From Terriglobia bacterium (GTDB lineage Bacteria; Acidobacteriota; Terriglobia; UBA7540): a DNA stretch of 64,000 nt. How positions within the stretch are numbered: position 1 is the first letter of the stretch; every line of letters begins with the position of its first letter. The stretch spans positions 18,365 to 82,364 of the forward strand of contig JBEKNU010000002.1 in NCBI GenBank assembly GCA_049522495.1, in the 5' to 3' direction. Made by a program: the position numbers and the translations under genes. The notes below the pieces were generated by a model that saw only the letters and a list, made by a program, of their open reading frames with translations, did no database searches and was not told the origin of the DNA. Shown here one piece after another: positions 33,501 through 60,306 of the stretch.

Positions 33501-33694
33501 TTCACACCGAGGCCTTAGAATCTGATTCTTCCGACGCCAGTCCGCTACCCGGGGGCTTGATTATTACGAGGAGGCGCTCTTCAGGCGTTCGCCTTGGTTT
33601 CCACAAATGCTGACCGCTCTGATTGAGGATGCCCGGTTGTCCCTCTGGTTCCCGATTTCTGGCGATTGCAGCAAGAAGGCATAGGACTTGGACG

Positions 33695-35104: not shown

Positions 35105-35112
35105 ATCCTTTC

Positions 35113-36114: not shown

Positions 36115-36146
36115 GAAAGAATTGCATTGGGGAGACCTGAATCCTC

Positions 36147-36974: not shown

Positions 36975-37002
36975 CGAATCTAGAGGCCAGAGTGCGTGAC
37001 AT

Positions 37003-38034: not shown

Positions 38035-38366
38035 CCTCCTGCACCGAGCAACATTCGAACCCAACAGAGAACCCAAGAGCCAAGTCGAATGAGACCCTCG
38101 CCCGCCCGTGGGAGCAGGTTGGGAGAAAACGTCAGGAAATGCCCCCTCTAAGCTACTGAAAACAAGTGCTGAAAAAATAAACAGCCATATAACACCATGA
38201 AAATACATTGGTTACCTGATGCTCGGGGAATACCCCCTAGCGGCGGGAAACCTTGGGATATCCACAATGGTCTAACCCTGATTTTGGCGATCAGCGCAAT
38301 CAAAATTTTCGCTAATGCGATACTTGGCACTGGGCTTTCAGCCCAACTAACAACAAAGGATAACTC

Positions 38367-39812: not shown

Positions 39813-39849
39813 TGTGGACCACGTAGGACCGGGAGACAAAAAACCCTAT

Positions 39850-40902
39850 ATGTCGAACGCCATGCCTAGCGAGAATTTCCGGCCGCTGACCTTGGTCACG
39901 GGCGGGGCAGGTTTCTTAGGTTCGCATCTCTGCGACCGCCTCCTGGTAGAGGGCCATGAGGTCATCTGCCTCGACAATCTCATCACCGGGCGGAAGGAGA
40001 ATATCCAGCACCTTCTCGTCCATCCGCATTTCCACTTTCTGCTTCACGACGTGACGCGGCCGATTGACTTGCCGGCCTTGCTCGCCGCAGCCCCGGGGCC
40101 CGCCTTCGCTCCCCGGCCGCTCAGTTACCTCTTGCACTTTGCCTCGCCGGCGAGCCCCAAGGACTACGCTCGACACCCGATTCACACCCTCAAGGTGGGA
40201 GCGCTGGGGACTTACCATGCCCTGGGGCTGGCGAAGGCCCAGGGAAGCGTCTTCTTGTTGGCCTCCACCTCGGAGATTTACGGCGACCCGGAGATCAGCC
40301 CGCAGCCGGAGAAGTATTGGGGGCACGTGAACCCCATCGGTCCGCGCAGCGTTTACGACGAAGCCAAGCGGTTTGCGGAGGCCATCAGCATGGCTTATTA
40401 CCGTGAGCACGGGGTCAAGGTGCGCATCGTCCGGATCTTCAACACCTACGGCGAACGCATGCGCCTGGAGGATGGGCGCGCCCTGCCCAATTTCATGGTC
40501 CAGGCGCTGGAGGGCAAACCCTTGACCGTGTATGGAAAGGGCAGCCAGACGCGCAGCTTGTGTTATGTCAGCGATCTGGTGGAGGGGCTCTACCGCCTGC
40601 TGATCTCCGGCCAGACCGGACCCATCAATTTGGGAAACCCCGAAGAGGTTTCCATGCTGCAACTCGCGGAGGCGATCCTAAAGGCCACGCAGAGTAAAAG
40701 TTCGATCACCTTTGAACCCCTCCCCGAGGATGACCCGCAGCGCCGCCAACCGGATATCACCGCCGCCCGGGAAAAACTGGGATGGGAGCCCCGCGTCAGT
40801 TTGGAAAACGGCCTGGCCAAGACGCTCCCCTATTTCCAGTCCGCATTGCGGAATCCCCCGCGGCCCGCTGATCCCATCTCTCTCTTGCCCGTGGACTTTT
40901 AG
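39850..40902 (+). CDS. UDP-glucuronate decarboxylase (UDP-xylose synthase-like SDR)
   Basis: Frame of ORF 39706..40902. ATG 39850. [33 protein letters not shown] (YxxxK), [22 protein letters not shown]. Confidence 0.85.
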
Positions 40903-41053: not shown

Positions 41054-42712
41054 ATGATCGGCGTATTGTCAAAAGACGGCGAGGCGAGGGCGGTACAGGA
41101 GTTCTTTCAATTATTCAAAACGCCCTGGGAGTCTTGCATTCCGGGTAAAGGCTATGACCTCGTCATCACAACTCGGGAGGAAATTCCACAAGACCTCAAT
41201 GCCCGCGCACTAGTGATTTACCAATCGCACGCCATCCCATTCGATGATCAAACGGGCGTGGTGACGGAATCCGGAAAAAGAAGCGATTGGGTGGAATGGG
41301 ACGGCATTGAGTTCCCCGTGTACGGAGACTTGGCGGCGTTTCAGTCCGCTGGGCGGCCATTGCTGAGGCGCAGGCAGACATTGGAGACGGTGGGGAGCAT
41401 CGTCGGAGGGGCAGAACGGCCCACCGCGCGCATCGGGCTTGATTTGTTTTGTGAAGTTGCCTTCTTGCTCACCCAGGGCCAGCCGGCGGAGAACGCCCGA
41501 ATCCCGACCTTGGATATTCACATCTCGCTCCTTCGGGCGGTCATGGTGAGTCTGGGGGTTCCGTTCGTTGAGGTTCCGCCCGCACCGGCCGGCTATGACT
41601 TCATGGGATGTCTCACCCATGATGTTGACTTCGTCGGCATCCGTGATCATAAGTGGGACCACACCATGTGGGGATTTCTTTATCGGTGCTTGGTCGATTC
41701 GACTCTGCGCGCCCTAAGAGGCAGACTTTCCTGGTCCAAATGTTTTCAGAATTGGACGGCTGCCTTGTCTCTCCCCTTGGTTTATCTGGGTTTGCGAGAT
41801 GATTTCTGGCTGGAGTTCGAGCGGTACACGGAAATTGAAAGAGAGTTCGGTTCAACGTTTTTTCTTATTCCCTTCAAGGACGTCGCGGGGACCCGGGGGT
41901 CCATTCCCGCGCCCAGGCGCCGGGCTGCGAAGTATGATGTCGGGGAGATAAGGGAGCAGATCCTCGATCTGATAGAAAATGGCTGTGAGGTTGGCCTTCA
42001 TGGGATTGATGCTTGGCAGAACCTCCAGAGTGCTCAATCCGAGCAAACCCGGATTCGCGAGATAACGGGACAATCGGGCTTGGGAACTCGTATGCATTGG
42101 CTTTATTGGGCAGAAAGCTCGCCCAAGACTCTCGAGGAGGCGGGCTTAGAGTACGATTCGACTTTTGGTTACAACGACGCGGTGGGCTTCCGCGCGGGAA
42201 CAACTCAGGCATTCTGTCCCTTGGTTGCTGAACGCCTGCTTGAGCTTCCGATGATTATTCAGGACTCCGCGATGTTCTACTCGGGTCGGATGAAGTTGTC
42301 GGAAAGTGATGCTCTGAGTGCTTGCAAGGAGCTCATTCACTCCGCGTTCTTGTCGGGTGGTGCGCTTACGGTGAACTGGCACACGAGGAGCTTGTCTCCG
42401 GAGAGACTCTGGGGAGACTTCTATGCGAAGCTGCTGAAGGAGATGCAGACGTATCGCGTATGGTTCGGGACAGCGAAGGAAATTGTCGGGTGGTTCCGAG
42501 AAAGGCGCGCGCTGCGCTTTGATTCCGTGCAGTTTGGAGAAAGCAGCGCGTCTGTGGCGCTGGCTAGCGCAGCCGGGGGTTCGGAGCCCTCGCTCACCGT
42601 GAGAATTCACCATCCGAGATTCGCGGCGGATCAGCCTGGCTCTCCCGCTCATATGCCCGCCCATAAGGACAAGCAGTGGAACGGGGAGGGTGTCGTGGAA
42701 ATTCCGTACTGA
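41054..42712 (+). CDS. large polysaccharide-deacetylase-like (CE4/NodB-like) protein, paralog 1
   Basis: ORF track. GCLTHDVDFVG, NGCEVGLHGIDAW and TRMHWLYW resemble the Asp-Asp / His / Arg blocks of NodB-type esterases. The N-terminal ~190 aa are unassigned. Assignment by eye only. Confidence 0.5.
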   Translation: MIGVLSKDGEARAVQEFFQLFKTPWESCIPGKGYDLVITTREEIPQDLNARALVIYQSHAIPFDDQTGVVTESGKRSDWVEWDGIEFPVYGDLAAFQSAGRPLLRRRQTLETVGSIVGGAERPTARIGLDLFCEVAFLLTQGQPAENARIPTLDIHISLLRAVMVSLGVPFVEVPPAPAGYDFMGCLTHDVDFVGIRDHKWDHTMWGFLYRCLVDSTLRALRGRLSWSKCFQNWTAALSLPLVYLGLRDDFWLEFERYTEIEREFGSTFFLIPFKDVAGTRGSIPAPRRRAAKYDVGEIREQILDLIENGCEVGLHGIDAWQNLQSAQSEQTRIREITGQSGLGTRMHWLYWAESSPKTLEEAGLEYDSTFGYNDAVGFRAGTTQAFCPLVAERLLELPMIIQDSAMFYSGRMKLSESDALSACKELIHSAFLSGGALTVNWHTRSLSPERLWGDFYAKLLKEMQTYRVWFGTAKEIVGWFRERRALRFDSVQFGESSASVALASAAGGSEPSLTVRIHHPRFAADQPGSPAHMPAHKDKQWNGEGVVEIPY

Positions 42713-43146: not shown

Positions 43147-44511
43147 TTGAGCATGATGAAACAATCTAACAAGGTGATTATCGATCACCTCCGCTGCCCT
43201 GACGATTTGGTGCAGATAGGAATGATAGGGGAGCTGTCTCGGGACCCTGGATTCTTCAATTTCGGTAGCGATGTCCTCTGCTACGGGAAATGTTCCGCAC
43301 TCACCCCCAGCCGGAAATTTAGCCCGCCATTACCTGACGCTCTGGAGCATGCTCAGGTCGACCAAGGGGTTGTGTCTCTTCCTTTTGATTTGACCGAGGT
43401 TGTCGAAGCCTTCCGCCGGGAAGAATACACCGCCGCTCTAGGGCATAAGGCGCGCCATTGGGCGCAGAATCCCGTTTTACGGATGGGCTATTACGTGGCA
43501 CGGCCTTTACTGCCGGTCCCGGTTCGCAAGCATCTTCAGAGGCTTGCCTTGCGCGGATGGGACAAACAACCTTTTCCTCACTGGCCGGTGGATACGACCG
43601 TCGAGCAGATTCTAGAGTCCCTGGTCGGATTGATCCTCCGGGAGAGCAAGGACCAGGCTTTGCCTTTTATTTGGTTTTGGCCGGAAGGGAAGCTAGCCTG
43701 CGCGGTCATGACTCACGACGTGGAGACGGCCGAAGGCAGAGATTTCTGTAAGAGTCTCATGGACGTTGATGACTCCTTTGGGATCAAGGCGTCATTCCAA
43801 GTTGTTCCGGAACGCCGGTATAAAGTTCCGGAGACCTACCTGACCAGCATCACCCAACGCGGATTCGAGGTGAATGTCCAGGACCTGAATCACGATGGGC
43901 GACTGTTTGACAAATATGAGGAGTTCCAACGCCGGACGAAAGCCATCAACGCATATGCTGGCGCTTTCAAGGCAGTGGGTTTTAGGTCCGCCGTTTTATA
44001 TCGCAATGCTGATTGGTTGAACTCGCTATCCTTCGAATATGACATGTCGATTCCCAATGTTGCCCATCTCGATCCCCAGGCGGGTGGATGCTGTACGGTT
44101 TTTCCTTATTTCGTAGGAGACATCTTGGAGATCCCCGTGACGACGATCCAGGACTATTCACTTTTCCACATTCTCCGAGACTATTCCCTGGATCTCTGGA
44201 AAGAGCAAAGCAGCCGTATCCAGGAGAGGCACGGGGTCATGAACTTTATCATCCATCCGGATTATGTGACCGGGGATCGGGAAATGCGAGTGTTTAAGGA
44301 CCTACTGGCGTATCTTGCCGAGTTGCGTGCCAAGGCTGGCTTATGGATTCCGCTGCCGCGCGAGCTCAGCGAATGGTGGAAGCAGAGGAGCCGGATGCAA
44401 ATTGTCAAAAGCGCGAGCGGTTGGGAGATTGTAGGAGAAGGCAAGGAACGGGCGCGACTCGCATACGCGCGATGGGTGAACGGGAAGCTGGTTTACGACC
44501 TCAAAGCCTAA
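43147..44511 (+). CDS. polysaccharide-deacetylase-like (CE4/NodB-like) protein, paralog 2
   Basis: ORF track. CAVMTHDVETAEG, GFEVNVQDLNHDG, FRSAVLY. Same block order as 41054..42712. Confidence 0.5.
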   Translation: MSMMKQSNKVIIDHLRCPDDLVQIGMIGELSRDPGFFNFGSDVLCYGKCSALTPSRKFSPPLPDALEHAQVDQGVVSLPFDLTEVVEAFRREEYTAALGHKARHWAQNPVLRMGYYVARPLLPVPVRKHLQRLALRGWDKQPFPHWPVDTTVEQILESLVGLILRESKDQALPFIWFWPEGKLACAVMTHDVETAEGRDFCKSLMDVDDSFGIKASFQVVPERRYKVPETYLTSITQRGFEVNVQDLNHDGRLFDKYEEFQRRTKAINAYAGAFKAVGFRSAVLYRNADWLNSLSFEYDMSIPNVAHLDPQAGGCCTVFPYFVGDILEIPVTTIQDYSLFHILRDYSLDLWKEQSSRIQERHGVMNFIIHPDYVTGDREMRVFKDLLAYLAELRAKAGLWIPLPRELSEWWKQRSRMQIVKSASGWEIVGEGKERARLAYARWVNGKLVYDLKA

Positions 44512-45219: not shown

Positions 45220-48200
45220 GTGGCGAGTATAACCACCCGTGGTGTTCTTCCGACAAGCCAGGTCTGCATAATGCTCACAAGAGTACCGAGTTCCGATAGT
45301 CGTGCCGTCCGCTCTTGCCCCCCGTCATCCGACAAGGAAGTTGCGACCATCCGGGAACTGATTGACCATATGGCCCGGACGCAGCCGGAGGCTTCCTTTC
45401 TCATCAGCCCTGAAACCGGACGAGTATTGACATTCCAGGGTTTACAAGAGCAGTCGAGGTTTCTCTCCACCCAACTTCGGGAGGCAGGATTAGAGCGTGG
45501 CGACAAGGTTGCCTTCTTGCTGGAGAACGGGTTGTTTACCGCACAGTTGTTCTTGGGAGCAATGTACGGAGGGTTCGTATCGGTGCCGTTGAATGTTCGC
45601 GCCGGCGTGTCCCAACTGTCCTACATGCTGGACCACTGTGACGCCAAAGTGGTTTTCGTCGCCGACGAGTACGCGACGATGATGGCCGAGGTGATGGCCC
45701 AGGTGCGGCGGACCGTACAGGCGATTCCCGCCGACATTGATGGCTTCCCTGCGGCGGGCGAAACACCTCCTTCGGCCACATCGCTGCCGGTCCCTGGGCC
45801 AGAGGACCAAGCGCTCCTGATGTACACCTCCGGCAGCACGGGTCATCCGAAAGCGGCAGTGCATTCCCATCGCACGGTGCTCTCCTTCGCCGCCAATAGC
45901 GTCCGTTCACACCAACTCGCCGGCGCGGACCGCTCCCTTTTGATGCTGCCGCTGTACCACATCAACGCGTCGTGCGTCACCCTGGTTCCCACGCTCATGA
46001 CTGGTGGATGCGTCGTCGTGCCCCATCGCTTCAGTGTCAGCCAGTTCTGGGACTGGCTGGACGAACACCGCTGTACGTGGTCGGCCGTGGTGCCGACGAT
46101 CATCGCTCAGCTTCTCGAGTGGGAAGATCCCCGTGCGGATAAGCGTCAAGCCGCCTTCCAGCGGATCCGGTTCGTACGTTCTTCTTCGGCGCCGCTGGCG
46201 CCGTCCCTGCACCGCGAGTTCCTTGATAAATTCCCTTTGTTGCTGATCCAGGCCATGGGCTCGAGCGAAGCGGGCAATGTTTTTTCCAATCCACTACCCC
46301 CAGGCAAGAACAAGATTGGATCGCCCGGCTTACCCTGGGGCTTCGAGGTCAAGATCGTTGATCGGGAGGGGGTTGAACTGGCAGCAGGAGAGCCCGGCGA
46401 AATCGTGCTTCGCGGTCCCGCCGTCATGCAGGGTTACTACAAGGAGCCGGAGGCGACGGCGGCGGTCCTTGACCCCGACGGCTGGCTGCACACCGGTGAC
46501 CTCGCGTATCGGGACGAAGACGGGTACTTCTTCGTGGTCGGCCGATCCAAGGAACTGATTATCAAAGGGGGAGTTAACATTGCTCCTCGGCAGATCGACG
46601 ACGTTCTGGAATCCCACCCGGCGGTGCGGGAAGCAGCCGCCGTAGGAGTTCCCGACCGTTACCTGGGTGAGGATCTCGTTGCTTTCGTGGTATTGCGCGC
46701 AGGAGTTGCCTGCGAGGAGAGGGAACTGCTCGCCTTTTGCGAAAGCCGATTGGGCCACTTTAAGACCCCAACACGGATCCACTTTGCCGACGACTTGCCC
46801 AAAGGCCCTTCCGGCAAAGTACAGCGGTTGCACTTGCGCGACGAGGCGGCACAGCTTGCCACGGGCAGCTCCGGTTCCTCTCGAGGCGAACTGGCGATAG
46901 CACTGGGCACTGGCCAGGTTGCACACCCTGGATTGCCGGCTGCCGGGTCGTCCATCGAGCAAATCATCGCCGAAACCTGGACGGAAGTCCTTTCGAAAGC
47001 GCCCGTGGACGCTGAGAGCAATTTCTTCGCGTTAGGGGGACACTCGCTGCTCGCTATGCAATGCGTGTCGCGTCTTCGCGAGAGAATCCCCGTTGCCCTT
47101 TCGCTGTCGGATTTCTTCGAGAACGCTACGGTGGCGCAGCAGGCCGCGCTTGTCCGGCGGCGATTGCCCCGGGACGAAGGTCAAGCCCTTGCGGGTGGAT
47201 CGGCCGCGGCTCGCGAAGAAGCCTGGCAGCTAAAGGTCGCGTCGTCCGTCAGCCCGCTGGCCATCCCTCCGCGGGATCCGGCGCTCCCTTGCCCTCTCAG
47301 CACCGCGCAGCGTCGGTTGTGGTTTATCGAACAGTTGAATCCCGGGTTGCCGCTTTACAACGAAGCTGAGGGCGTGCGGTTGCTCGGCGAACTCAATACC
47401 GAGGCGATGGAACGAGCGCTGAACGTTATCGTCGCACGCCACGAGGTGCTGCGCACTACCATCCAGGTAACGGACAACGAACCCGTGATGGTAGTCCACG
47501 AGAGCTGGCCGCTTCAGCTTAAGAAGATCGACCTGAGCGCATTGACCCCCGCGGAGCGGCAGGCAGAAGTCGAGCGCTTGCTCATTGACGAGCCGCGGCG
47601 CCTGTATCATCTCGAAGCCGAACCGGGAATCCGTGCGACGTTGCTCCGTTTGGCCCCCCGGGAGCATATCTTCATTCTGATGATGCACCATATCTTTAGC
47701 GACCGGTCATCGCTAGGGATTTTGTTTCGGGAGATGGCAACACTGTACCGCGCCTTTTGCCGCGGCGAGTCGATTGCCTTGCCTCCTCTGCTGATCCAGT
47801 ACGGAGATTATGCGGTTTGGCAGCAACAGAGGATTACGGACGCGGCGTCAGCCGAAGACCTGTCCTTCTGGACGGAGAACCTGCGTGGGGCGCCTCAACT
47901 CCTGGAATTGCCCGCGGATCGGCCCCGCCCGCTCACGCTTTCCTACCGCGGCGTCAAACGGCGCTTCCGGCTTAACCCCGCCTTGACCAAAGCTCTACGC
48001 GATGCCAGCCAACGGGAAAAGGCAAGCTTGTTCACCCTGTTTACCGCGGCGCTCGACACCCTGCTCTATCGTTACACGGGACGGGAAGACATCCTGTTGG
48101 GAATTCCGATCGCCGACCGGGAACGGCCGGAACTGCAATCGGTGATCGGTTTTTTGGTCCACACCTGCGTCTTGCGAACCGGGCTTTCGGGAGACATGAC

Positions 48201-51200
48201 GTTTCGGGAGTTGCTCGCCCTCGTTCAGAAGGAAATGTTGGAGCTTTACCGTCATCGCGCCGTGCCATTTGACGAGGTTGTGCGAAAACTCCGGCCGGAG
48301 CGCAACCCAAGTTACTCCCCGCTGTTCCAAGTGATGATCAATTGGCGCGATCGCGGTCTGCAACTGTCGTTTATCGGGTTGGAAGGACTTGTGGTGGAGC
48401 CGCTTCTGGCCCAGAGCGAAACGGCGAAGCTCGATTTGCAACTGTTCATAACCGACGGCGGGGACGAATTCTGGTTGGAGATGGAATACAGCACTGACCT
48501 GTTCGACGAGGCGCGCATCTCGCGAATGATCGGGCACTATCAAACCCTGCTGGAATCGGTGGCCTCTGATCCCGGCCGGCGACTGGCGGAATTGCCTTTG
48601 TTGACAGCGGAGGAGCGGCGCCAACTCCTGGTGGAATGGAATAACACCAGGGTCGATTATCCCGCTGATGCGTGCGTTCACGAGCTATTTGAAAGGCAGG
48701 CGAAAAGGACACCTGAGGCGGTGGCGGTGGAGTTCAATGGCGAACGATTGACATATTCCGAGTTGAACAGGCGAAGCACGGAGTTTGCTCAACACCTGCA
48801 AGCGCGGGGAGTTGGCCCGGACGTCCTTGTCGCTGTCTATGTCGACCGCTCGTTGGAATTGGTGATCGCCTTACTGGGAATTCTCAAGGCCGGAGGCGCT
48901 TACCTGCCCGTTGACCTGGTTTTTCCGCAGGAGCGGGTGGCATTTATGCTGGGTGATGCACAACCCCGAGTTTTGGTTACGGTTACGAAACTTCTGGCGG
49001 AACTTCCGCGTAACCAATCGGAGGTAGTCTGCGTCAATGACTTTGCGGCCCTGAGTGAGGCGCCGATGGCTCGGCCCCCGGAGTCCCGCCATTTGGCGTA
49101 CGTGATTTACACTTCCGGTTCCACAGGAAAGCCCAAGGGGGTTGAAATTTGCCACCGGGCGGTGGTGAATTTCCTGAACTCCATGCGACAAGTGCCGGGG
49201 ATGGAGGCGCAGGATACGCTGTTGTCTGTCACTTCCCCGTCATTCGACATTTTTGGCCTGGAACTGTGGCTGCCACTCACCAGCGGAGCTAAGGTGGTGA
49301 TCGTGTCGCAGGACGTGGCAATGGATGGAAGCCAACTTGCCAAGGTCATGGCCGCGCGCGGTGTGACGGTGATGCAGGCCACGCCGTCAACCTGGCGGGT
49401 GTTGTTGGAGGCAGGATGGGAGGGCGACCTGAGTTTGAAGATTCTCTGCGGTGGTGAAGCGTGGCCGGAAGAACTCGCCGCGCAACTGCTGCCCAAGGGC
49501 CGCGCGCTATGGAATATGTACGGGCCCACGGAGACCACCCTCGGGTCGGCCGTATACCCGGTGGAGAAGGGGACGCCGATTTTGATTGGGGATCCGATTG
49601 CGAACACGCAATTTTACGTGGTCGATAGTGACCTGCAGCCAGTGCCGGTGGGAGTGCCCGGCGAGCTTTTGATCGGAGGTGATGGTCTGGCGCGAGGCTA
49701 CTTGCGGCGTCCCGAGTTGACGGCCGAAAAGTTCATTCCCGATCCCTTCAGCGCGAGCGCGGGTTCGCGACTGTATCGGACCGGTGACTTGGTGCGCTAC
49801 CTGCCGGACGGCAATCTTGAGTTCCTCGGCCGGCTGGATCAACAGGTGAAAATCCATGGCTTCCGTATCGAGTTGGGTGAAATCGAAGCCGCGCTGCGCC
49901 AACATCCGGCCGTGCAGCAAACCGTCGTGATCGCGCGAGAGGATACGCCGGGAGACAAACGCCTTGTCGCCTACGTGGTGGTGAATCCCGAGTACGAAAT
50001 CGGCTCAGACGAAGCCGAATCGCATTCGGAACACCTTGACGGCTGGCAGACGATGTGGGACGAGACCTACCAGCAGTCGGCGGAGATTCCCGATCACACG
50101 TTCAACATCGCAGGGTGGAATAGCAGTTATACCGGCGAGGCCATACCCGCCGAGCAAATGCGCACATGGGTTGACACCACCGTCGAACGGATCCTTGCCC
50201 TGCGGCCGCAGCGAGTGTGGGAAATCGGTTGCGGCACCGGTTTGCTGCTCCACCGCCTGGCTCCCCACTGTCTCCATTATTACGCGACGGATTTTTCCGC
50301 CACCGCGGTGAATACCCTGCAACGGCAGATTGCCGGATCGGCTGTGACGAATAAGGTGGTGCTGAAGCAAGCCCAGGCGCATGACTTTACCGGCATCGAA
50401 GCAGGGAGCTTCGATGTTGTCATCCTGAACTCCGTCGCACAGTACTTTCCTGACGTCAATTATCTGGTGCGGGTGTTGGAAGGCGCGGTGCGGGCCGTGA
50501 AGCCCGGGGGCGCAATTTTCCTGGGCGACATTCGCAGCGAGCCGCTCCTGAACGCGTTTCATGCGGCGGTCCAACTGGAGCAGGCGCCTGCCTCGCTGCC
50601 AGGCGCTGATCTGCGGCAAAGGATTCAAAGGGCTCTGAGCCAGGAAAGCGAATTGGCCATCAGCCCCGGCTTTTTCATCGCCTTGTGGAAGCACCTGCCG
50701 GCCATTACCCAGGTGGAGATTCAACTCAAGCGGGGCCGTCATCACAACGAGTTGAGCCTCTTTCGTTACGATGTGGTCCTGCGCGTGGGAGCGACGGTTA
50801 AATCCACGGAAAACCAGACTCGCTTCGACTGGCAACAACGCGGGTTTTCGGTGCCCGATCTGCGCCGGTATCTGGAGGAGGAGCGGCCCGCCGCGCTCAC
50901 CCTGACGGGAGTGCCCAACGCCCGGCTGCAGCGTGAATTCAAGCTGCTTGAAATCCTCGCCGGCGTGGAATGTCCAGCGACGGTAGGGGAGCTCCGCGGA
51001 GCCCTGAGAGCGGACAGCGCGCCCAACGCGATCGACCCGGAGGATCTCTGGACTTTAGGTGAGTCGCTGGGTTACACCGTTCAAGTCCGCTGGTCGGATG
51101 GCGGAGCAGCGGCTTCGTGCGATGCGGTATTCCTGCGACGCGAGAACGGCGCGGGGGATGGGGTGGACTCGGTGTTCCATTTCCCGGGCGAGCCGAGTGC

Positions 51201-51780
51201 CTCCCGGCCTTGGAGCGCGTACGCGAACAATCCGCTCCAGCGCGCCTTGATCAGTAACTTGACGCCGCGATTATCCTCGTACTTGCAAGAGAGCTTGCCG
51301 GACTACATGGTCCCCTCGGCCTTCGTGACGCTCGGAACCCTGCCGTTGACGCCCAACGGTAAAGTGGACCGACGCGCCCTGCCTCCCCCGGCCGCAGAGA
51401 GGCTTGCCGGGGCGATTTCCGCTGACCTTGTACCGCAGAATGAAACGGAACGGAAGATCGCAGCGATTTGGCAGGACGTCCTGGGGATTACCAGCGTCGG
51501 CAGAGAGGACAACTTTTTTGATCTGGGTGGTGATTCTTTCCGCTTAATAAGGGTTCGCAACCATTTGCAGCGGACCTTTGGCAAAGACATTCCCCTGGTC
51601 GATATGTTTCGGTGCACGACGGTTCGAGCCCTCGCGCAATACTTTGCAGGCCGACCGGCCGAGTTGACTGCGCCGGACCACACCCAGGAAGAGCTTGAGG
51701 CGCGAAGAGGCGCAAGCCGGCGTCATCGGCAATTGCGACGGCTTCTCGTGGATGAGTTGCGAGAGCATTTGAATGAGTAA
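45220..51780 (+). CDS. non-ribosomal peptide synthetase: CoA-ligase-like loading domain - CP - C - A(with embedded methyltransferase) - CP
   Basis: ORF track (start uncertain: GTG 45220 or ATG 45270). Loading domain: LMYTSGSTGHPKAAVHSH, HTGDLAYRDEDGYFFVVGRSKELIIKGG, PKGPSGKVQR. Carrier: FFALGGHSLLAMQ. C domain: MHHIFSDRSS (HHxxxD). A domain: YVIYTSGSTGKPKGV, NMYGPTETT, YRTGDLVRY, GRLDQQVKIHGFRIELGEIE. MT insert: VWEIGCGTGLLLHRL, FDVVILNSVAQYF. A10: PLTPNGKVDRRAL. Carrier: FFDLGGDSFRLIR. Confidence 0.9.
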   Translation: MASITTRGVLPTSQVCIMLTRVPSSDSRAVRSCPPSSDKEVATIRELIDHMARTQPEASFLISPETGRVLTFQGLQEQSRFLSTQLREAGLERGDKVAFLLENGLFTAQLFLGAMYGGFVSVPLNVRAGVSQLSYMLDHCDAKVVFVADEYATMMAEVMAQVRRTVQAIPADIDGFPAAGETPPSATSLPVPGPEDQALLMYTSGSTGHPKAAVHSHRTVLSFAANSVRSHQLAGADRSLLMLPLYHINASCVTLVPTLMTGGCVVVPHRFSVSQFWDWLDEHRCTWSAVVPTIIAQLLEWEDPRADKRQAAFQRIRFVRSSSAPLAPSLHREFLDKFPLLLIQAMGSSEAGNVFSNPLPPGKNKIGSPGLPWGFEVKIVDREGVELAAGEPGEIVLRGPAVMQGYYKEPEATAAVLDPDGWLHTGDLAYRDEDGYFFVVGRSKELIIKGGVNIAPRQIDDVLESHPAVREAAAVGVPDRYLGEDLVAFVVLRAGVACEERELLAFCESRLGHFKTPTRIHFADDLPKGPSGKVQRLHLRDEAAQLATGSSGSSRGELAIALGTGQVAHPGLPAAGSSIEQIIAETWTEVLSKAPVDAESNFFALGGHSLLAMQCVSRLRERIPVALSLSDFFENATVAQQAALVRRRLPRDEGQALAGGSAAAREEAWQLKVASSVSPLAIPPRDPALPCPLSTAQRRLWFIEQLNPGLPLYNEAEGVRLLGELNTEAMERALNVIVARHEVLRTTIQVTDNEPVMVVHESWPLQLKKIDLSALTPAERQAEVERLLIDEPRRLYHLEAEPGIRATLLRLAPREHIFILMMHHIFSDRSSLGILFREMATLYRAFCRGESIALPPLLIQYGDYAVWQQQRITDAASAEDLSFWTENLRGAPQLLELPADRPRPLTLSYRGVKRRFRLNPALTKALRDASQREKASLFTLFTAALDTLLYRYTGREDILLGIPIADRERPELQSVIGFLVHTCVLRTGLSGDMTFRELLALVQKEMLELYRHRAVPFDEVVRKLRPERNPSYSPLFQVMINWRDRGLQLSFIGLEGLVVEPLLAQSETAKLDLQLFITDGGDEFWLEMEYSTDLFDEARISRMIGHYQTLLESVASDPGRRLAELPLLTAEERRQLLVEWNNTRVDYPADACVHELFERQAKRTPEAVAVEFNGERLTYSELNRRSTEFAQHLQARGVGPDVLVAVYVDRSLELVIALLGILKAGGAYLPVDLVFPQERVAFMLGDAQPRVLVTVTKLLAELPRNQSEVVCVNDFAALSEAPMARPPESRHLAYVIYTSGSTGKPKGVEICHRAVVNFLNSMRQVPGMEAQDTLLSVTSPSFDIFGLELWLPLTSGAKVVIVSQDVAMDGSQLAKVMAARGVTVMQATPSTWRVLLEAGWEGDLSLKILCGGEAWPEELAAQLLPKGRALWNMYGPTETTLGSAVYPVEKGTPILIGDPIANTQFYVVDSDLQPVPVGVPGELLIGGDGLARGYLRRPELTAEKFIPDPFSASAGSRLYRTGDLVRYLPDGNLEFLGRLDQQVKIHGFRIELGEIEAALRQHPAVQQTVVIAREDTPGDKRLVAYVVVNPEYEIGSDEAESHSEHLDGWQTMWDETYQQSAEIPDHTFNIAGWNSSYTGEAIPAEQMRTWVDTTVERILALRPQRVWEIGCGTGLLLHRLAPHCLHYYATDFSATAVNTLQRQIAGSAVTNKVVLKQAQAHDFTGIEAGSFDVVILNSVAQYFPDVNYLVRVLEGAVRAVKPGGAIFLGDIRSEPLLNAFHAAVQLEQAPASLPGADLRQRIQRALSQESELAISPGFFIALWKHLPAITQVEIQLKRGRHHNELSLFRYDVVLRVGATVKSTENQTRFDWQQRGFSVPDLRRYLEEERPAALTLTGVPNARLQREFKLLEILAGVECPATVGELRGALRADSAPNAIDPEDLWTLGESLGYTVQVRWSDGGAAASCDAVFLRRENGAGDGVDSVFHFPGEPSASRPWSAYANNPLQRALISNLTPRLSSYLQESLPDYMVPSAFVTLGTLPLTPNGKVDRRALPPPAAERLAGAISADLVPQNETERKIAAIWQDVLGITSVGREDNFFDLGGDSFRLIRVRNHLQRTFGKDIPLVDMFRCTTVRALAQYFAGRPAELTAPDHTQEELEARRGASRRHRQLRRLLVDELREHLNE

Positions 51781-54700: not shown

Positions 54701-56395
54701 GGGTCCTTTACCATAAACCCTGAAGTGAGGGAAGACTACCAGACCTTGTGGAATGAACTTAAGGCAGGTGAACGGTCACCCAGCGCGATCGTGCATCTAT
54801 GGTGTCATACCAGCAGGGATGAGAAGCTATCGATCGCCGATTCCTGCGAGCACTTCCGCAAAGTGGGATTTAACAGTTTGCTGTTTCTGGCTCAAGCCAT
54901 TGGCGAGCAACCTTCCGGGGAACCGGTGCAAATCAAAGTCATTTCCAACCACCTCCATGAGGTAACGGGCGAGGAGTTTTTGAATCCTGCTAAGGCCGTC
55001 CTTCTTGGTCCGTGTCGGGTCATCCCTCAGGAGCTTCCCAACATACAGTGCACGAACGTTGATATGGGAGACAGCCAGCCAGCAGACGAATACGCGCAGT
55101 TGCTTGTGAAAGAACTAACCGCCAAGACTACGGATGCAGTTGTCGCCTACCGAGGGACACACCGGTGGGTACAAACGTTTGAACGCATAAAGTTGGGCAG
55201 AATCGACCGTTCCAAATCCCCGTTAAGAGAAGGAGGCGTATATCTCATTACGGGTGGTCTCGGCGGAATGGGTCTGGTTTTGGCCGAGTATTTGGCTCAA
55301 TCGGTGCATGCAAAACTTGTTCTGATTTCACGGACCGGCCTGCCCGCCAGAGAAAAATGGCAACAATGGCTGGACACGCACGAGGAACAGGATGCTGTTA
55401 GCCGAAAGATTCGAAAGGTACAATTGATCGAGAAACAAGGAGCAAAAGTCCTAATTCTGAGGGCCGATGTAACCGACGCCAATCAGATGAAGGCGGCCAT
55501 TGAGCAAGCGCATGGTCAATTTGGAAAAATCCATGGAGTGATACACGCCGCAGGCATCGGCGATCCCGGCACCATCCTGGAGAAAAAACCTGAAGTGGCA
55601 GCAGGCGTTATGGCGCCGAAAGTGGAGGGAACTCTATTGCTCGGTCAACTGCTGCGTGAAAGCAGGTTGGATTTTTTCGTCCTCTGCTCCAGCCTCAGTG
55701 TACATGTGGGGGGAATAAAAAGAGTGGATTATTGCTCGGCGAATGCCTATTTGGATGCATACGCGCAGAGGTATCATAGAGAGAATAACGTCATCTCAAT
55801 AGATTGGGGTTTCTGGCAGGAAGTTGGTATGGCTGTCAACACTGAAGTGCCGTTGCGTCTCAAGGAGGAGAGAGAACGGGTTCTGCGGCTTGGAATGTCG
55901 CCCGACGAGGGAATAGAGGCATTTGGCAGGATTCTGGGGAGGCCCTATCCGCAAGTGATCGTCTCTCCGTCACAAGACCTTACCGCGTTGATGCCAAGAA
56001 GCGATATGGGCGGGGAATCGGGTGCTGTAGAACAGAAAACGGAGTCTCCTTTAGGCAAACCGACGCACGCACGTCCTGAACTGTCCAGTGACTATGTTGT
56101 TCCCGGAAATTCAACGGAGCAGACCATTGCCGATATCTGGCAGGAACTTCTTGGCATTGCCAACATCGGGATCCACGACAATTTCTTCGAATTAGGCGGA
56201 CATTCGTTGCTGGCACCAAGCCTCGTAGCCCGCTTGAAGAGCGTATTTCCCATCGAACTCTCCGTGGCAAGCCTGTTCGAAAACCCCACGGTCCATTCGC
56301 TCAGCGAGAAGGTACGGCAAGGAGGGCGGGATGGATCATCCTTCGACGAGAGCAGGAGCCGGGGACAGAAACGGAAGGAGCGCATTCGAGGATGA
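51773..56395 (+). CDS. type I polyketide synthase module: KS-AT-KR-CP
   Basis: ORF track. Start overlaps the NRPS stop (ATGAGTAA). KS: IAVIGMAGRFPDAPD, TACSTS (Cys codon 52319-52321), EAHGTATALGDP, NIGHLGAAAG. AT: GHSIGEY (Ser codon 53663-53665) and HAFHS (malonyl-type). KR: YLITGGLGGMGL, YCSANAYLD. Carrier: FFELGGHSLLA. No DH or ER motifs seen. Confidence 0.92.
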   Translation: MSKHQEADQLDRIAVIGMAGRFPDAPDLGQFWKHLCAGVESVTTLTDEQLASAGVEPEVIRAANYVKSNVLLEGIDLFDARFFGFTPREAELTDPQHRLFLECAWEALEDAGYDSDKTRLRIGVVAGVGTNSYFVYNLASNPALLKSLDEFMRSIAIEKDFLSTRISYKLNLRGPSLTVQTACSTSLVATHLACQSLLNGECDMALAGGVSVRIPQIAGYLHEPGSAMSPDGHCYAFDAAAQGMVNGSGAGVVVLKRIADAQADGDSIRAVIRGSAINNDGAAKIGYTAPSVEGQASVIAEAQALASVSADEISYVEAHGTATALGDPIEIAGLTKAFRRTSQRDGFCAIGSVKTNIGHLGAAAGVASLIKVVLALQNRKLPPSLNFKRPNPAIDFVHSPFYVQQTLSEWQPANGRRAAGVSSFGLGGTNAHAVLEEAPVTDPSGPSRPWQLLLLSAHTTSALDKMTRNLGEHLKNNPLSILADVAYTLQRGRKAFPHRRMLVCQSLEDAAAALQSLDPARISSHHQEPAHRDVAFMFPGQGAQYANMSLELYRAESEFQEQVDRCCELLKPHLSFDLRAILYPGDKEVESASQKLKQTLVAQPALFIIEYALAKLLMSWGIKPAALVGHSIGEYVAACLAGVFSLEDALALVAARGRLMQDLPQGSMLAVSVSEAEIAPLLNERLSLAAVNSPSLCVVSGETEAVKHLEEELSKRGVTCRHLHTSHAFHSRMMDPILGKFTREVEKADLHPPEIPILSTVTGTWTHSAELASPDYWARNLRQTVRFSKCVQELMKEPDRILLEVGPGNALGTLARQHPGGSGKRIVLTTIRHPHEQTSDIAFILNTLGRLWLANVEVDWSGFYKKERRHRIPLPTYPFERQRYWIEPSQEMPAMGVARRLSEKKPDIAEWFYVPSWKRAQLPDHSNGSGPSTHSLCALVFLDEGGFGANLVKLLQNSGQRVTVVKAGAKFNRISDGSFTINPEVREDYQTLWNELKAGERSPSAIVHLWCHTSRDEKLSIADSCEHFRKVGFNSLLFLAQAIGEQPSGEPVQIKVISNHLHEVTGEEFLNPAKAVLLGPCRVIPQELPNIQCTNVDMGDSQPADEYAQLLVKELTAKTTDAVVAYRGTHRWVQTFERIKLGRIDRSKSPLREGGVYLITGGLGGMGLVLAEYLAQSVHAKLVLISRTGLPAREKWQQWLDTHEEQDAVSRKIRKVQLIEKQGAKVLILRADVTDANQMKAAIEQAHGQFGKIHGVIHAAGIGDPGTILEKKPEVAAGVMAPKVEGTLLLGQLLRESRLDFFVLCSSLSVHVGGIKRVDYCSANAYLDAYAQRYHRENNVISIDWGFWQEVGMAVNTEVPLRLKEERERVLRLGMSPDEGIEAFGRILGRPYPQVIVSPSQDLTALMPRSDMGGESGAVEQKTESPLGKPTHARPELSSDYVVPGNSTEQTIADIWQELLGIANIGIHDNFFELGGHSLLAPSLVARLKSVFPIELSVASLFENPTVHSLSEKVRQGGRDGSSFDESRSRGQKRKERIRG

Positions 56396-59300
56396 CGCCG
56401 GGGGATGGGGTACAGCCCGTGAAGAAGCCAGAAACCTCTGATCGCTGGAGCGGTTCTGAGATAGCGATCATTGGTATGGCCGGCCGCTTTGCCGGTGCGC
56501 CGGACATTGAAGCGTTCTGGAATAATCTGCGGGATGGAGTGGAGTCCATCACCTTCTTCACCGATGAGCAATTGCTGGCCTCAGGGGTTGATCCCAAAGC
56601 CCTGCAGAGCAACCACTACGTCAAAGCAGGTTCCGTACTGGAGGGAGTCGAGCTCTTTGATGCCGCCTTCTTCGGATTCAATCCGCGAGGGGCCGCAGCG
56701 ATGGATCCGCAACATCGCCTTTTCCTGGAATGCGTGTGGGAGGCGATCGAAGCGGCCGGGTACGACCCGGAGCGCTACAAGGGCGCCATCAGTTTATTTG
56801 CCGGCGCAAGCATGAGCAGTTATTTTCTTAACAACCTTTATGCGAACCCGGACGCCTTTGACCTCGCCGAAATGTATCAGGGCTTTCTCTCCAACGCCCA
56901 AGATTCTTTGGCCACGCTCGTTGCCTATAAACTGAATTTGAAGGGAGCCTGTTACACCGTCGGGACCTTCTGTTCCACTTCCCTGGTGGCCGTCCATCTC
57001 GCCTGCCAGAGCTTGCTGAATTTTGAATGTGACATGGCCGTGGCCGGGGGCGTAAGGGTCGGCGTACCACAACATGCCGGCTACTGGTATCGAGAGGGCC
57101 TGATCGTTTCCCCGGATGGGCATTGCCGGCCCTTTGATGCCAAAGCGCAGGGAACGGTGTTCGGCAACGGGTTGGGGGCCGTGGTGCTGAAAAGGTTTAA
57201 AGACGCTTTAGCGGATGGCGATCGAATTGACGCGGTGATCCTCGGCTCGGCAACAAACAATGACGGTTCCCTGAAGGTGAGTTACACGGCGCCCAGCGTG
57301 ACCGGCCAGTCTGAGGTCATCGTAGAGGCGCTGGCTAATGCCGGGGTCCAGCCCGAGACAATCACCTACGTGGAGGCCCACGGGACCGGAACTGCCCTTG
57401 GGGATCCTACGGAAGTTGCTGCCCTTACCCATGCCTTTCGCAGTGGAACGCAGAAGAAGGGCTTCTGTGCCCTGGGTTCACTGAAGTCAAACATCGGACA
57501 CGTGGATGCGGCGGCCGGCGTGGCCGGTCTGATCAAAACCGTTCTCGCGCTCAAGCACCAGCAAATTCCTCCCACCCTGCATTTCCATGAGCCGAATCCC
57601 AGTATTGATTTTGCAAGCAGCCCGTTCTACGTCAATTCGACCCTTTCCGAATGGAAAAGCGATGGCCTCCCCCGACGCGCCGGCCTCAGCGCATTCGGCG
57701 TGGGAGGGACAAACGCCCACGTAATTCTCCAGGAGGCCCCTGTAGCTGAACCCTCGGGTCCGTCCCGGCCTTGCCAACTGCTTGTACTCTCCGCCAAGAC
57801 CCGATCCGCTCTGGAAACGGCCACAGGGAATTTGAGCAAGTTCTTTAAGAGCCACCCCGATCTGAACCTCCCGGATGCCGCCTACACCCTGCAGGTAGGT
57901 CGAAGAGCTTTCAACCACCGCAGGGTCATCGTCTGCCAGGATGTTGAGGATGCCTTGTCCGCGATTGCAGCGGCGGACTCGAAACCCCTGGCGACCGCCT
58001 ACCAGGATAAAAGGAATCCCCCTGTCACATTCATGTTTTCTGGACAGGGTGCACAATATGTGAGCATGGGGTCGGAGCTTTATAGGACCGAGTCAAGATT
58101 TCGCGCACAAATCGATCGCTGCGCGGAAATACTTCAGTCTCATCTTTCGCTCGATATACGGCAGATCCTATACGCGGACGCTGCCGGTGTCGAAGAGGCC
58201 GCGCGAAGGCTGGGCCAAACATCCATCACCCAACCCGCACTATTCATCGTGGAATACGCCCTGGCGCGATTGTGGATGGCATGGGGGGTGCATTCGACCG
58301 ATATGGTAGGGCACAGCATCGGAGAGTATGTTGCCGCCTGCCTTGCAGGAGTATTCTCCCTGGAAGACGCCTTGGCGCTAGTGGCCGCCAGGGGACGGCT
58401 CATGCAGAGTCTACCCGGTGGCAGTATGCTGGCGGTTCGGCTTCCGGAGGACGCGATTCGGTCGCTTATCGACAATGAACTTTCCCTGGCGGCGATCAAC
58501 AGCCCTTCCTTATGCACCGTTTCCGGCGCAGGCAAAGCTGTGGAAGATTTCAAAGGGCGGCTTTCCGAAAGGAATGTGGATTGCCGCCCCTTGCATACCT
58601 CCCACGCCTTTCATTCAAGTATGATGGACCCGGTTATAGATGCATTTGCTGACGAAGTGAAACGAACGCGAAGGAACCCTCCCCAAATTCCCTTCATTTC
58701 GAATGTCACCGGAACGTGGATTACTCCGGACGAAGCGGTGGCCCCCGAATACTGGGCGAGGCACCTTCGCCACACCGTCCGATTCTCCGACGGGGTTCGA
58801 GAATTGTTGAAGGAGCCAAACAGAGTTTTTCTGGAGGTGGGTCCCGGAAACACGCTCAGTACGCTGGTGAAACAACATCTGAACGGATCGGAACATAAGG
58901 TAGTACTTTCCTCGATCCGTCACCCCCATGAGCAAGATTTGGATGTTGCTTTTATTCTGAACACTCTCGGCCGGCTCTGGTTGACCGGGGTTGAGGTGGA
59001 TTGGTTCGGGTTCCATGAAAAGGAGAGACGCCATCGGGTCCTTCTGCCGACCTATCCCTTTGAGCGCCGGCGTTATTGGGTCGAGCCGGTAGATCCACCA
59101 CGAGGTTATCTTGCGGCACGCGCGGGCTTGATCCGAAAGCAAGAAAATCTGCCGCGCTCCGTCGAACCGGAGATGACGCAGGAGGAGCTGGCTCCCAGAG
59201 ATTCAGCGCTGCAAAGTGAGTACGTGGCTCCGCAAACCGACGTGGAGAAAAAGCTCGCAACCCTCTGGCGAGAGTCTTTCGGCATCGACAAAATTGGCAT

Positions 59301-60306
59301 CCATGACAATTTCTTCGATCTGGGTGGGGACTCAATTCTGGCTGTTCACATCTTCGTTCAAATCGAGAAGGTACTGAAAGTTAAGTTGCCCCTCGCCACG
59401 CTCCTCGGAGCTCCCACAATTGCGCAGCTCGCTCAGGTTCTCCGCCAGGAGGCCCCAACGTCCGGGTGGTCGCCGCTGGTGACAATTCAGCCCACAGGCT
59501 CGCGTCCTCCGTTCTTTTGTATTCATGGGGCTGGCGGTGGCGTCCTCATCTATCGAGACCTTTCGCGACACCTGGGCTCTGACCAACCGTTCTACGGTCT
59601 GCAAGCCCAGGGACAGGACGGGAGTTGCTTGCCCCTTACCAGAATCGAGGACATGGCTACCCTTTACGTCAAGGAGATTAAAAGGGTGCGGCCACACGGG
59701 CCGTATTTCCTCGGCGGATACTGCGGGGGCGGGACCATTGCCTATGAGGTGGCGCAGCAGCTCCAAGCGGAGGGAGAACAGATCGGCTTGTTGGCAATGT
59801 TCGACACGTCAAACTGGTGCAAAGTTCCCCGCCCTTCGATCTGGGATAGAACTTACCGCTCTGTGGAGACACTGATATTTCATGCGGCCAATTTCCTTTC
59901 TCTAGATTCCAAAGGGAAGGGCAAGTTCTTTTTGGAAAAGGCCAAGATCTTGCGCAGCCGGATCCCCGTGTGGCGAGGGATGCTGCTCGCCAAGTTCGAC
60001 AAGCACTCACGGATGCCCGGGTCAGAATCCCGCGTGTTAGGACAGATCTGGCAGGCGAATGACCGGGCAGGCTTGAATTACATCCCCAAGCCCTTTCCCG
60101 GCACGGTCACAGATTTTCGCCCCAAGAAGCAGTATCGGAGGCTCAACCATCCAAGTGTGAAATGGGATCAGTTGGCGGAAGGCGGGCAAGAGATTGTTGT
60201 TCTGCCCGTCTACCCCGGCGGCATGCTGGTCGAGCCTTTCGTCAGGGACTTGGCCGATGCCCTGAGAAGATCCATCGACAACGCGATTAACCATCGCCCA
60301 AGCTGA
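56392..60306 (+). CDS. type I polyketide synthase module: KS-AT-CP-TE (terminal)
   Basis: ORF track. ATGA overlap with the upstream stop. KS: IAIIGMAGRFAGAPD, TFCSTS, EAHGTGTALGDP, NIGHVDAAAG. AT: GHSIGEY, HAFHS. Carrier: FFDLGGDSILAVH. TE: PPFFCIHGAGGGVLIYRDL ... GPYFLGGYCGGGTIAYEVA. Confidence 0.92.
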   Translation: MTPGDGVQPVKKPETSDRWSGSEIAIIGMAGRFAGAPDIEAFWNNLRDGVESITFFTDEQLLASGVDPKALQSNHYVKAGSVLEGVELFDAAFFGFNPRGAAAMDPQHRLFLECVWEAIEAAGYDPERYKGAISLFAGASMSSYFLNNLYANPDAFDLAEMYQGFLSNAQDSLATLVAYKLNLKGACYTVGTFCSTSLVAVHLACQSLLNFECDMAVAGGVRVGVPQHAGYWYREGLIVSPDGHCRPFDAKAQGTVFGNGLGAVVLKRFKDALADGDRIDAVILGSATNNDGSLKVSYTAPSVTGQSEVIVEALANAGVQPETITYVEAHGTGTALGDPTEVAALTHAFRSGTQKKGFCALGSLKSNIGHVDAAAGVAGLIKTVLALKHQQIPPTLHFHEPNPSIDFASSPFYVNSTLSEWKSDGLPRRAGLSAFGVGGTNAHVILQEAPVAEPSGPSRPCQLLVLSAKTRSALETATGNLSKFFKSHPDLNLPDAAYTLQVGRRAFNHRRVIVCQDVEDALSAIAAADSKPLATAYQDKRNPPVTFMFSGQGAQYVSMGSELYRTESRFRAQIDRCAEILQSHLSLDIRQILYADAAGVEEAARRLGQTSITQPALFIVEYALARLWMAWGVHSTDMVGHSIGEYVAACLAGVFSLEDALALVAARGRLMQSLPGGSMLAVRLPEDAIRSLIDNELSLAAINSPSLCTVSGAGKAVEDFKGRLSERNVDCRPLHTSHAFHSSMMDPVIDAFADEVKRTRRNPPQIPFISNVTGTWITPDEAVAPEYWARHLRHTVRFSDGVRELLKEPNRVFLEVGPGNTLSTLVKQHLNGSEHKVVLSSIRHPHEQDLDVAFILNTLGRLWLTGVEVDWFGFHEKERRHRVLLPTYPFERRRYWVEPVDPPRGYLAARAGLIRKQENLPRSVEPEMTQEELAPRDSALQSEYVAPQTDVEKKLATLWRESFGIDKIGIHDNFFDLGGDSILAVHIFVQIEKVLKVKLPLATLLGAPTIAQLAQVLRQEAPTSGWSPLVTIQPTGSRPPFFCIHGAGGGVLIYRDLSRHLGSDQPFYGLQAQGQDGSCLPLTRIEDMATLYVKEIKRVRPHGPYFLGGYCGGGTIAYEVAQQLQAEGEQIGLLAMFDTSNWCKVPRPSIWDRTYRSVETLIFHAANFLSLDSKGKGKFFLEKAKILRSRIPVWRGMLLAKFDKHSRMPGSESRVLGQIWQANDRAGLNYIPKPFPGTVTDFRPKKQYRRLNHPSVKWDQLAEGGQEIVVLPVYPGGMLVEPFVRDLADALRRSIDNAINHRPS

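Follow-up and report, generated by a model that had tools for sequence, protein, structure and literature searches.

The window analyzed here is a stretch of 64,000 nucleotides from a Terriglobia bacterium (Acidobacteriota; contig JBEKNU010000002.1), and the element of interest is the thioesterase (TE) that closes an assembly line of non-ribosomal peptide synthetase (NRPS) and polyketide synthase (PKS) modules. The TE lies at the C-terminal end of a 1304-aa PKS protein (Table 1), in which Pfam recognizes a ketosynthase (KS, residues 23-399), an acyltransferase (AT, 546-868), a PP-binding carrier domain (954-1016) and a Thioesterase domain (PF00975, 1040-1140). The KS Cys194, the AT Ser642 and a malonyl-type HAFH motif are all present. 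According to Pfam, this last module has the architecture KS-AT-ACP-TE (ACP, acyl carrier protein), without a ketoreductase (KR), and the TE is the sole release function encoded in the assembly line. Since the KR is absent, the chain ends, next to the thioester, in a beta-keto group; a KR-derived hydroxyl is present at C5 alone. The TE has an alpha/beta-hydrolase fold directly after a carrier domain and a G-x-Nuc-x-G elbow, as do type I PKS/NRPS TEs, the elbow reading G-Y-C-G-G with Cys1111 instead of Ser. Its Pfam match (E = 5.1e-27) directly follows the PP-binding domain and spans the N-terminal 103 of the 226 profile positions only; both this match and the sequence matches in the PDB end at the acid known as the position-I Asp. 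The C-terminal half of the TE (domain residues 125-288) has zero PDB sequence matches by phmmer, even at E <= 10.

The Cys at the elbow had already been proposed in a preliminary description of this sequence, and its assignment holds. The TGC codon is in frame with the start at 56392 ((59722-56392)/3 = 1110, hence codon 1111), and the protein context of Cys1111 is PYFLGGYCGGGTIAYE, which includes the elbow LGGYCGGG; the FFCIHGAGGG motif quoted in the same description is also present in the TE. In phmmer alignments to PDB chains, Cys1111 aligns with the nucleophiles of solved TEs, namely the Ser of Skyxy-TE (7crn, GWSLG), the Ser of EntF and the Cys of AB3403 (4zxh, GGWCFGG). When the ACP-TE didomain was modelled with AlphaFold2 (mean predicted local distance difference test, pLDDT, of 83), it came directly after a central strand (166-171 in model numbering), which corresponds to the elbow. 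Cys nucleophiles are indeed 'less common' among characterized TEs (PMC11298585), as the preliminary description had indicated. Yet its expectation that this subfamily normally reads GGYSGGG is contradicted by the homologues. A clustered-protein search with the TE domain over 5.8 billion proteins gave 1327 matches at E <= 1e-5, and the best 120 of them (64-85% identity) carry G-Y-C-x-G-G in 120/120 cases. From 1.84 billion cluster representatives, searched exhaustively with HMMER, 3763 were retrieved at E <= 1e-30; when the best 150 were aligned with MAFFT, the nucleophile was Cys in 147/175 TE domains and Ser in 21/175, many of the Ser-type domains being the second domain of tandem-TE proteins. 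The codon for this Cys is TGC or TGT across 17 homologous TE loci that were assembled independently, and Ser-type relatives use TCN. To judge from these alignments, the Cys nucleophile is the normal state of a large uncharacterized clade related to the AB3403 TE and not a one-off substitution. The preliminary description had named a prevalence of Cys among hydrolytic TEs of the clade as grounds for refuting its reading; of this, the close homologues bear out the prevalence of Cys.

The absence of the canonical His, overlooked in the preliminary description, is a more unusual feature than the Cys. In alpha/beta-hydrolase TEs, the catalytic His is carried by the loop that connects the last strand to the last helix. 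In the AlphaFold2 model this loop reads PVYPGGMLVEP and holds no His. The C-terminus of the AB3403 TE, taken from the protein database, reads GWDQLIKDTLTQVDLPGDHSSIM and contains LPGDHSSIM; in an L-INS-i multiple alignment with intermediates, its His aligns with Pro1275 of the query, KWDQLAEGGQEIVVLPVYPGGML. The His of the Ser-type relatives falls in this column as well. A BLASTP comparison of both TEs is significant over the first 100 residues only, and the equivalence of the His and Pro1275 is based on the multiple alignments with intermediates and on shared W-D-Q-L ... L-P anchors. The acid of the triad is at position I (Asp1138, in MFDTS); this column contains D, E or N in 79, 55 and 9 members of the clade, respectively, and remains D/E in the forms that lack the His.

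The identity of the nucleophile and the presence of the loop His were tallied in 160 full-length TE domains, five of which have an elbow with Asp, Gly or Ala; the resulting counts lack phylogenetic independence. Among the Cys forms (n = 141), 99 have no loop His, 17 have the canonical His, 16 have a His shifted by one position (PxxPH) and 9 have a His elsewhere in the loop. All 14 Ser forms have the canonical His, with none in the other three categories. A His in the first lid helix (His1164 in the query) is present in 92/99 of the Cys forms without loop His versus 1/17 of those with the canonical one. The coupling is also visible locus by locus in the homologous loci, where Cys occurs with VYP[AGR]G and the lid His, and Ser with G-N-H and no lid His. 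The query is part of the majority sub-group of the clade, in which the position-I acid has been kept, the canonical His lost and the lid-helix His conserved. The counts fit one of two explanations: either the lid has taken over the role of the His, or an acyl-enzyme of the thioester type can do without it. The lid as a whole is strongly conserved across upstream module types (C-A-T-TE, C-T-TE, T-TE and KS-AT-T-TE, where C, A and T stand for condensation, adenylation and carrier domains), which is unusual for TE lids.

Table 1 Features of the TE-bearing assembly line and of the surrounding locus (window coordinates; ORF, open reading frame)
Feature	Position	Strand	Basis or remark
Polysaccharide locus upstream of the assembly line	9603..40902	+	In order: NusG-like, Wza-like, Wzz, P-loop kinase-like; Bac_transf, WbpB/D/E-like; GT4, epimerases, flippase, three GT2, methyltransferases, UDP-Glc dehydrogenase, epimerase
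WbpB-like GFO oxidoreductase	18795-20048	+	
WbpD-like hexapeptide acetyltransferase	20045-20524	+	
WbpE-like DegT aminotransferase	20544-21776	+	
CE4-like ORF, THDVD motif	41054..42712	+	Distant paralog of ORF 43147..44511; weak NCBIfam VimE match
CE4-fold deacetylase-like protein, THDVE motif	43147..44511	+	Fold match
NRPS, 2186 aa: acyl-CoA-ligase-like A - T - C - A (embedded methyltransferase) - T	45220..51780	+	Pfam; stop overlaps next start
PKS module KS-AT-KR-ACP, 1540 aa	51773..56395	+	4-base overlap with the TE-bearing gene
Final PKS module KS-AT-ACP-TE, 1304-aa ORF	56392..60306	+	Pfam
Carrier domain (ACP/PCP-type; PCP, peptidyl carrier protein), GGDS motif	59251..59439	+	Pfam PP-binding; phosphopantetheine Ser981 at 59332-59334
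Thioesterase domain, alpha/beta-hydrolase fold	59470..60303	+	Pfam PF00975; PDB sequence and fold matches
TGC = Cys1111, nucleophile, GYCGG elbow	59722..59724	+	Frame; phmmer against PDB; homologue alignments
GAC = Asp1138, acid at position I, past the strand that comes next to the nucleophile helix in sequence	59803..59805	+	Aligns with DT of AB3403 and EntF
CAT = His1164, first lid helix, FH motif, candidate replacement base	59881..59883	+	Alignments; model (pLDDT ~91)
CCC = Pro1275, column of the canonical catalytic His	60214..60216	+	Alignments; LP-VYP-GGML versus LP-GDH-SSIM of AB3403
Short 2-isopropylmalate/homocitrate-synthase-like gene, 390 aa, without C-terminal regulatory region	60577-61749	+	
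Sugar nucleotidyltransferase	62242-63108	+	

All genes of the window beyond about 9.6 kb are located on the forward strand and make up one polysaccharide locus (exopolysaccharide, EPS, or capsule; 9603-63108), of which the NusG-like gene is the first. The sugar genes are followed by two ORFs without Pfam match, the NRPS, the KS-AT-KR-ACP and KS-AT-ACP-TE modules, the gene related to 2-isopropylmalate synthase (IPMS) and homocitrate synthase, and a sugar nucleotidyltransferase gene. The NRPS-PKS stands directly 3' of two CE4-like genes, inside a co-directional Wbp-type locus. No Pfam domain was detected in these two ORFs, even at E <= 1, and PDB sequence searches were likewise empty. The structural model of the second one (pLDDT 87) matches CE4-type polysaccharide deacetylases, including ArnD and the Bordetella O-antigen protein WbmS; its family comprises about 7000 or more proteins, nearly all of them annotated as 'hypothetical'. 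The IPMS-like gene may provide an unusual keto acid or amino acid for use as a building block, and is found at the same place after the TE gene in the Acidobacteriota metagenome-assembled genome (MAG) L050 (14330-15454, 54% identity). The second A domain of the window's NRPS carries its embedded methyltransferase at residues ~1646-1788, which is absent from the syntenic NRPS of L050 (520-5655). On the other side of the locus (3343-8840), an alpha-L-fucosidase and a DUF2961 protein are encoded on the reverse strand, followed on the forward strand by a histidine kinase/LuxR-type response regulator pair that is possibly the regulator of the polysaccharide locus.

The carrier-TE unit occurs in several architectures: C-A-T-TE (as in AB3403), C-A(MT)-T-TE (MT, methyltransferase), C-T-TE with a TubC-type docking domain, KS-AT-T-TE in Acidobacteriota, Nitrospirae, Dehalococcoidia and Desulfobacteraceae, and a free-standing T-TE of ~375 aa in Terriglobia, which is the form of most of the closest homologues. 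Many Cys-TE proteins of ~850-900 aa (e.g. P0128, P0144) are organized as (TubC-type docking)-C-T-TE and have no adenylation domain, which implies trans-loading of the carrier. The best genomic matches to the window come from a Candidatus Sulfotelmatobacter MAG (81%) and from L050 (78%), the latter with a syntenic NRPS-PKS-PKS(TE)-IPMS-like block. The TE-bearing PKS has its closest ortholog (81% identity) in the Ca. Sulfotelmatobacter MAG (L006, 8430-13132). There the protein stops behind the carrier, a condensation domain comes next, and the assembly line of that genome continues rather than terminating.

The association of the Cys-TE with a Wbp-type locus and an adjacent CE4-like gene recurs in three phyla. 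In the Desulfobacteraceae MAG L055, a single strand encodes Wzc-like, Wza, Bac_transf, WbpB, WbpD, WbpE, a phosphopantetheinyl transferase (PPTase), an unknown protein, A-T, KS-AT-ACP-TE (Cys, VYPAG), a CE4-like protein, DegT and GT4s. In the Nitrospirae contig L007, the Cys-TE PKS is followed, ~2.2 kb or two genes further downstream, by a CE4-like gene, and the CE4-like genes of both L055 and L007 are homologues of ORF 43147..44511. The L069 locus brings together a CE4-like gene, a PPTase, FemAB/VimA-like genes and a T-TE. The free-standing Cys T-TE genes of Acidobacteriota are accompanied by Bac_transf, NusG-like and WbpB/E-like genes, glycosyltransferases and a PPTase. They are also found with enzymes that tailor amino acids, with a stand-alone adenylating enzyme and, in many cases, with another T-TE of the Ser type. 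Such pairs, one Cys/His-less and the other Ser-type, were observed in the Acidobacteriota contigs L003-L005, L066 and L067, in a conserved cassette that also contains an aminotransferase IV or a flavin adenine dinucleotide (FAD) monooxygenase, a Cys/Met-metabolism enzyme dependent on pyridoxal phosphate (PLP), a homoserine O-acyltransferase-like protein, a stand-alone adenylating enzyme, a thiamine pyrophosphate (TPP) enzyme and a PPTase. A conserved unknown protein is encoded with the Cys-TE PKS in L055 (7170-8441) and L007 (3539-4828), with 60% identity between them; its N-terminus carries a twin-arginine-like signal, its match to nitroreductases is faint, and the window has no homologue of it.

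Several scenarios may explain the unusual active site and its genomic context. The one that we tentatively favor, while granting it slightly less than an even chance, is that the domain is a genuine Cys-nucleophile off-loading TE whose acyl-S-Cys intermediate would be handed to an acceptor of the surrounding glycan pathway. The NRPS and the two PKS modules would build an acyl-aminoacyl-5-hydroxy-3-oxo chain, perhaps N-methylated on the aminoacyl unit, which would pass from the phosphopantetheine of Ser981 to Cys1111 in a near-thermoneutral transthioesterification. An incoming nucleophile would then resolve the acyl-S-enzyme, with His1164 and Asp1138 possibly acting as a re-wired dyad. This nucleophile would most likely not be water and might come from the glycan pathway, the proposed acceptor being the amine that the adjacent CE4-like deacetylases would free on a Wbp-type diamino-uronic sugar. 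A sugar amine as the specific acceptor is, however, doubtful, being assigned a clearly lower probability than transfer as such. In the Wbp/Vim pathway, an N-acetyl group is taken off by VimE, and the freed amine then receives an amino acid through VimA (PMC7468200); the scheme would be the assembly-line counterpart of this step. Loss of the His tolerated only in combination with Cys would be explained by the fact that thioester aminolysis needs little base catalysis. The polysaccharide locus, the CE4-like neighbors and the free-standing A + T-TE systems would all be consistent with release by transfer to a sugar or another acceptor, in the manner of Pks13. A broader and rather speculative extension, which we consider unlikely as a whole, is that the His-less Cys T-TEs are widespread, so far undescribed carrier-protein-dependent acyltransferases that graft NRPS/PKS acyl or aminoacyl chains onto de-N-acetylated Wbp-type diamino-uronic sugars of exopolysaccharides or capsules, either through a re-wired Cys-His(lid)-Asp triad or through base-free aminolysis.

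Some other accounts of the Cys can be largely discarded. The preliminary description had raised the possibility of an error in the codon, AGC or TCC being the true sequence, and a Ser codon is indeed one base away. Nothing else speaks for this reading: the 120 close homologues with Cys come from independent assemblies, both TGC and TGT are found, and the Ser-type relatives combine their TCN codons with different co-varying residues, so that a sequencing or assembly error is next to inconceivable. It is also improbable, if somewhat less so, that the TE is a catalytically dead or purely structural remnant, given that the triad His is missing. The missing canonical His and the partial Pfam match would agree with such a remnant. 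Nevertheless, the invariance of the Cys in the close homologues, which extends to many lid residues (His1164, Arg, Trp and Asn-Asp motifs) across sequences that are 64-85% identical, speaks against it; moreover, the clade extends over several phyla and architectures, and the assembly line encodes no release function besides this TE. The Cys had also been linked to the strained-ring chemistry of ObiF and SulM, whose beta-lactone or beta-lactam release relies on a Cys nucleophile. In these enzymes the triad Asp is relocated to position II, in the loop after the next strand, position I is occupied by Gly, and SulM carries a Gln-Cys-Asn motif, traits that set them apart from AB3403 with its Cys and position-I Asp (PMC6668435, PMC11298585). 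ObiF (6N8E) and SulM (8W2D) share with the query the Cys and the alpha/beta-hydrolase TE fold, and both are among the fold matches (SulM at rank 9, ObiF at rank 13). Yet the query has its Asp at position I and Tyr-Cys-Gly in place of Gln-Cys-Asn, its sequence matches that of ObiF1 only remotely (E = 4e-5 versus 1.7e-23 for AB3403), and the same Cys-TE is joined to many unrelated module types. Furthermore, the substrates of ObiF and SulM end in a beta-hydroxy or beta-amino amino acid, whereas the chain of the query ends in a beta-ketone, without the beta-hydroxyl or the beta-amine/sulfamate of those systems; since no beta-OH or beta-NH is available on the terminal unit, a four-membered ring cannot close, although a delta-lactone could. 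The strained-ring hypothesis is thus largely refuted by the module architecture, and the chance we leave it is very small.

A more serious alternative is that the TE carries out ordinary release: either hydrolysis to a free beta-keto acid, which may decarboxylate, or attack by the C5-hydroxyl to give a six-membered delta-lactone (a 4-hydroxy-5,6-dihydro-2-pyrone). The product would be a free lipopeptide-polyketide and the sugar neighborhood would reflect co-regulation or coincidence. Terminal assembly-line TEs usually hydrolyze or cyclize, this TE closes a collinear assembly line as its C-terminal domain, and the closest characterized relatives (EntF, Skyxy-TE, GbnD6 TE) follow the rule; the module set predicts a 5-hydroxy-3-oxo chain whose delta-hydroxyl is suited to lactonization, and in two Dehalococcoidia loci (L009, L010) no sugar genes were seen in the sequence available around the same Cys-TE. 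These observations weigh against the transfer to a glycan acceptor, as do several others: the lid His is not exclusive to the His-less forms, being present in 8/14 related Ser/His domains, and the covariation lacks phylogenetic independence; the CE4 assignment of ORF 43147..44511 derives from the fold only, with template modelling (TM) scores of 0.42/0.65, and ORF 41054..42712 matches the NCBIfam model of VimE (UDP-2,3-diacetamido-2,3-dideoxy-glucuronate deacetylase) with E = 2.9e-15 and 55.8 bits, where the family cut-off is 440 bits; a position among polysaccharide genes hints at a shared product without proving it; and no member of the His-less Cys clade is characterized. On the other hand, ordinary release has to do without the canonical His, the normal activator of water or of a hydroxyl. 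The T-TE is also used free-standing with single adenylating enzymes, where no cyclization is possible and where hydrolysis would be futile, as it would only return the freshly activated acid, which argues for transfer. The conservation of the lid across unrelated upstream modules and the recurrence of Wbp-type loci with adjacent CE4-like genes in three phyla also count against ordinary release. We regard it, on these grounds, as a plausible scenario that falls noticeably short of even odds, and keep off-loading to an acceptor of the glycan pathway as our working interpretation.

The apparent 'Cys instead of Ser' is thus the usual state in a clade that comprises thousands of members and has a single solved, uncharacterized structure, so that the substitution itself is ordinary; of more interest are the His-less Cys clade and its association with polysaccharide loci. 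No account of either was found in the accessible literature on Cys-TE surveys, on NRPSs in EPS loci of Acidobacteria and on TE-mediated N-acylation of amino sugars. If our interpretation is correct, an alpha/beta-hydrolase release domain would work without its canonical His, a loss tolerated only with a Cys nucleophile, and this would bear on the resolution of thioester acyl-enzymes and on TE engineering, for instance on Ser-to-Cys swaps. The recurrence of these TEs in polysaccharide loci next to CE4 deacetylases suggests a route for decorating surface glycans with NRPS/PKS acyl groups; to our knowledge, the enzymes responsible for many of the unusual N-acyl substituents of O-antigens and exopolysaccharides have not been identified. 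Genome-mining tools would score the cluster as an NRPS-PKS for a free metabolite, which would be misleading for a large set of acidobacterial clusters if the product is in fact glycan-bound.

Among known systems, the closest relative of the query is AB3403 (ABBFA_003403; 4ZXH/4ZXI), a C-A-T-TE NRPS from Acinetobacter baumannii. It is the best PDB sequence match (E = 1.7e-23 with phmmer and 3.8e-45 with a profile) and the best PDB fold match of the AlphaFold2 model (4ZXH, E = 6.5e-21), ahead of EntF, Skyxy-TE, SulM and the gladiolin GbnD6 TE; each of the top 50 listed fold matches is a TE domain or a synthase that contains one. AB3403 is itself functionally uncharacterized, with a Cys nucleophile and an Asp at the usual position I (PMC11298585). 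The query shares with it this Cys, the position-I acid (FDTS versus IDTR), a Glu (AYE) two helical turns past the elbow and, immediately before the TE, a PCP-type carrier, a combination that, together with the overall similarity, would place it among the AB3403-like Cys TEs. Nevertheless, AB3403 keeps a complete Cys-His-Asp triad with the canonical His (LPGDH versus LPVYP in the query) and has no lid 'FH' His, pairwise comparison with the query gives no significant similarity for its lid and C-terminal half, and its TE is fused to C-A-T and not to KS-AT-T. The Ser-His-Asp TEs of EntF (3TEJ), Skyxy (7CRN) and GbnD6 (9F7B) have the same fold as the query and align well with it in the N-terminal half, where the oxyanion region (H-x-x-G-G), the elbow and the Asp at position I are all shared; they differ in their Ser nucleophile and canonical His, and they hydrolyze, cyclize or epimerize free products. 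The TE studied here is related to type I TEs and works like them, but lacks one defining feature both of these and of the AB3403 group, the canonical His.

Two further systems are informative about the proposed reaction. The TE of Pks13 from Mycobacterium tuberculosis, which has detectable sequence and fold similarity to the query (E = 1e-11 to 3e-19), off-loads its product onto a sugar, trehalose, and not onto water, the kind of reaction proposed here. It differs by its Ser-His-Asp triad, by the transfer of its acyl group to oxygen and by the lack of a Wbp-type polysaccharide locus around it. The context of the query is instead reminiscent of the Wbp/Vim systems of Porphyromonas gingivalis and Tannerella forsythia, in which the deacetylate-then-reacylate logic is established (PMC7468200) and which have WbpB/D/E-like and CE4-like genes in common with the window. 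Unlike these systems, the window has only a weak VimE match and no VimA (FemAB-like) gene adjoining the deacetylases; in that place it has the NRPS-PKS with the Cys-TE, and the acyl donor would accordingly be a carrier-protein thioester.

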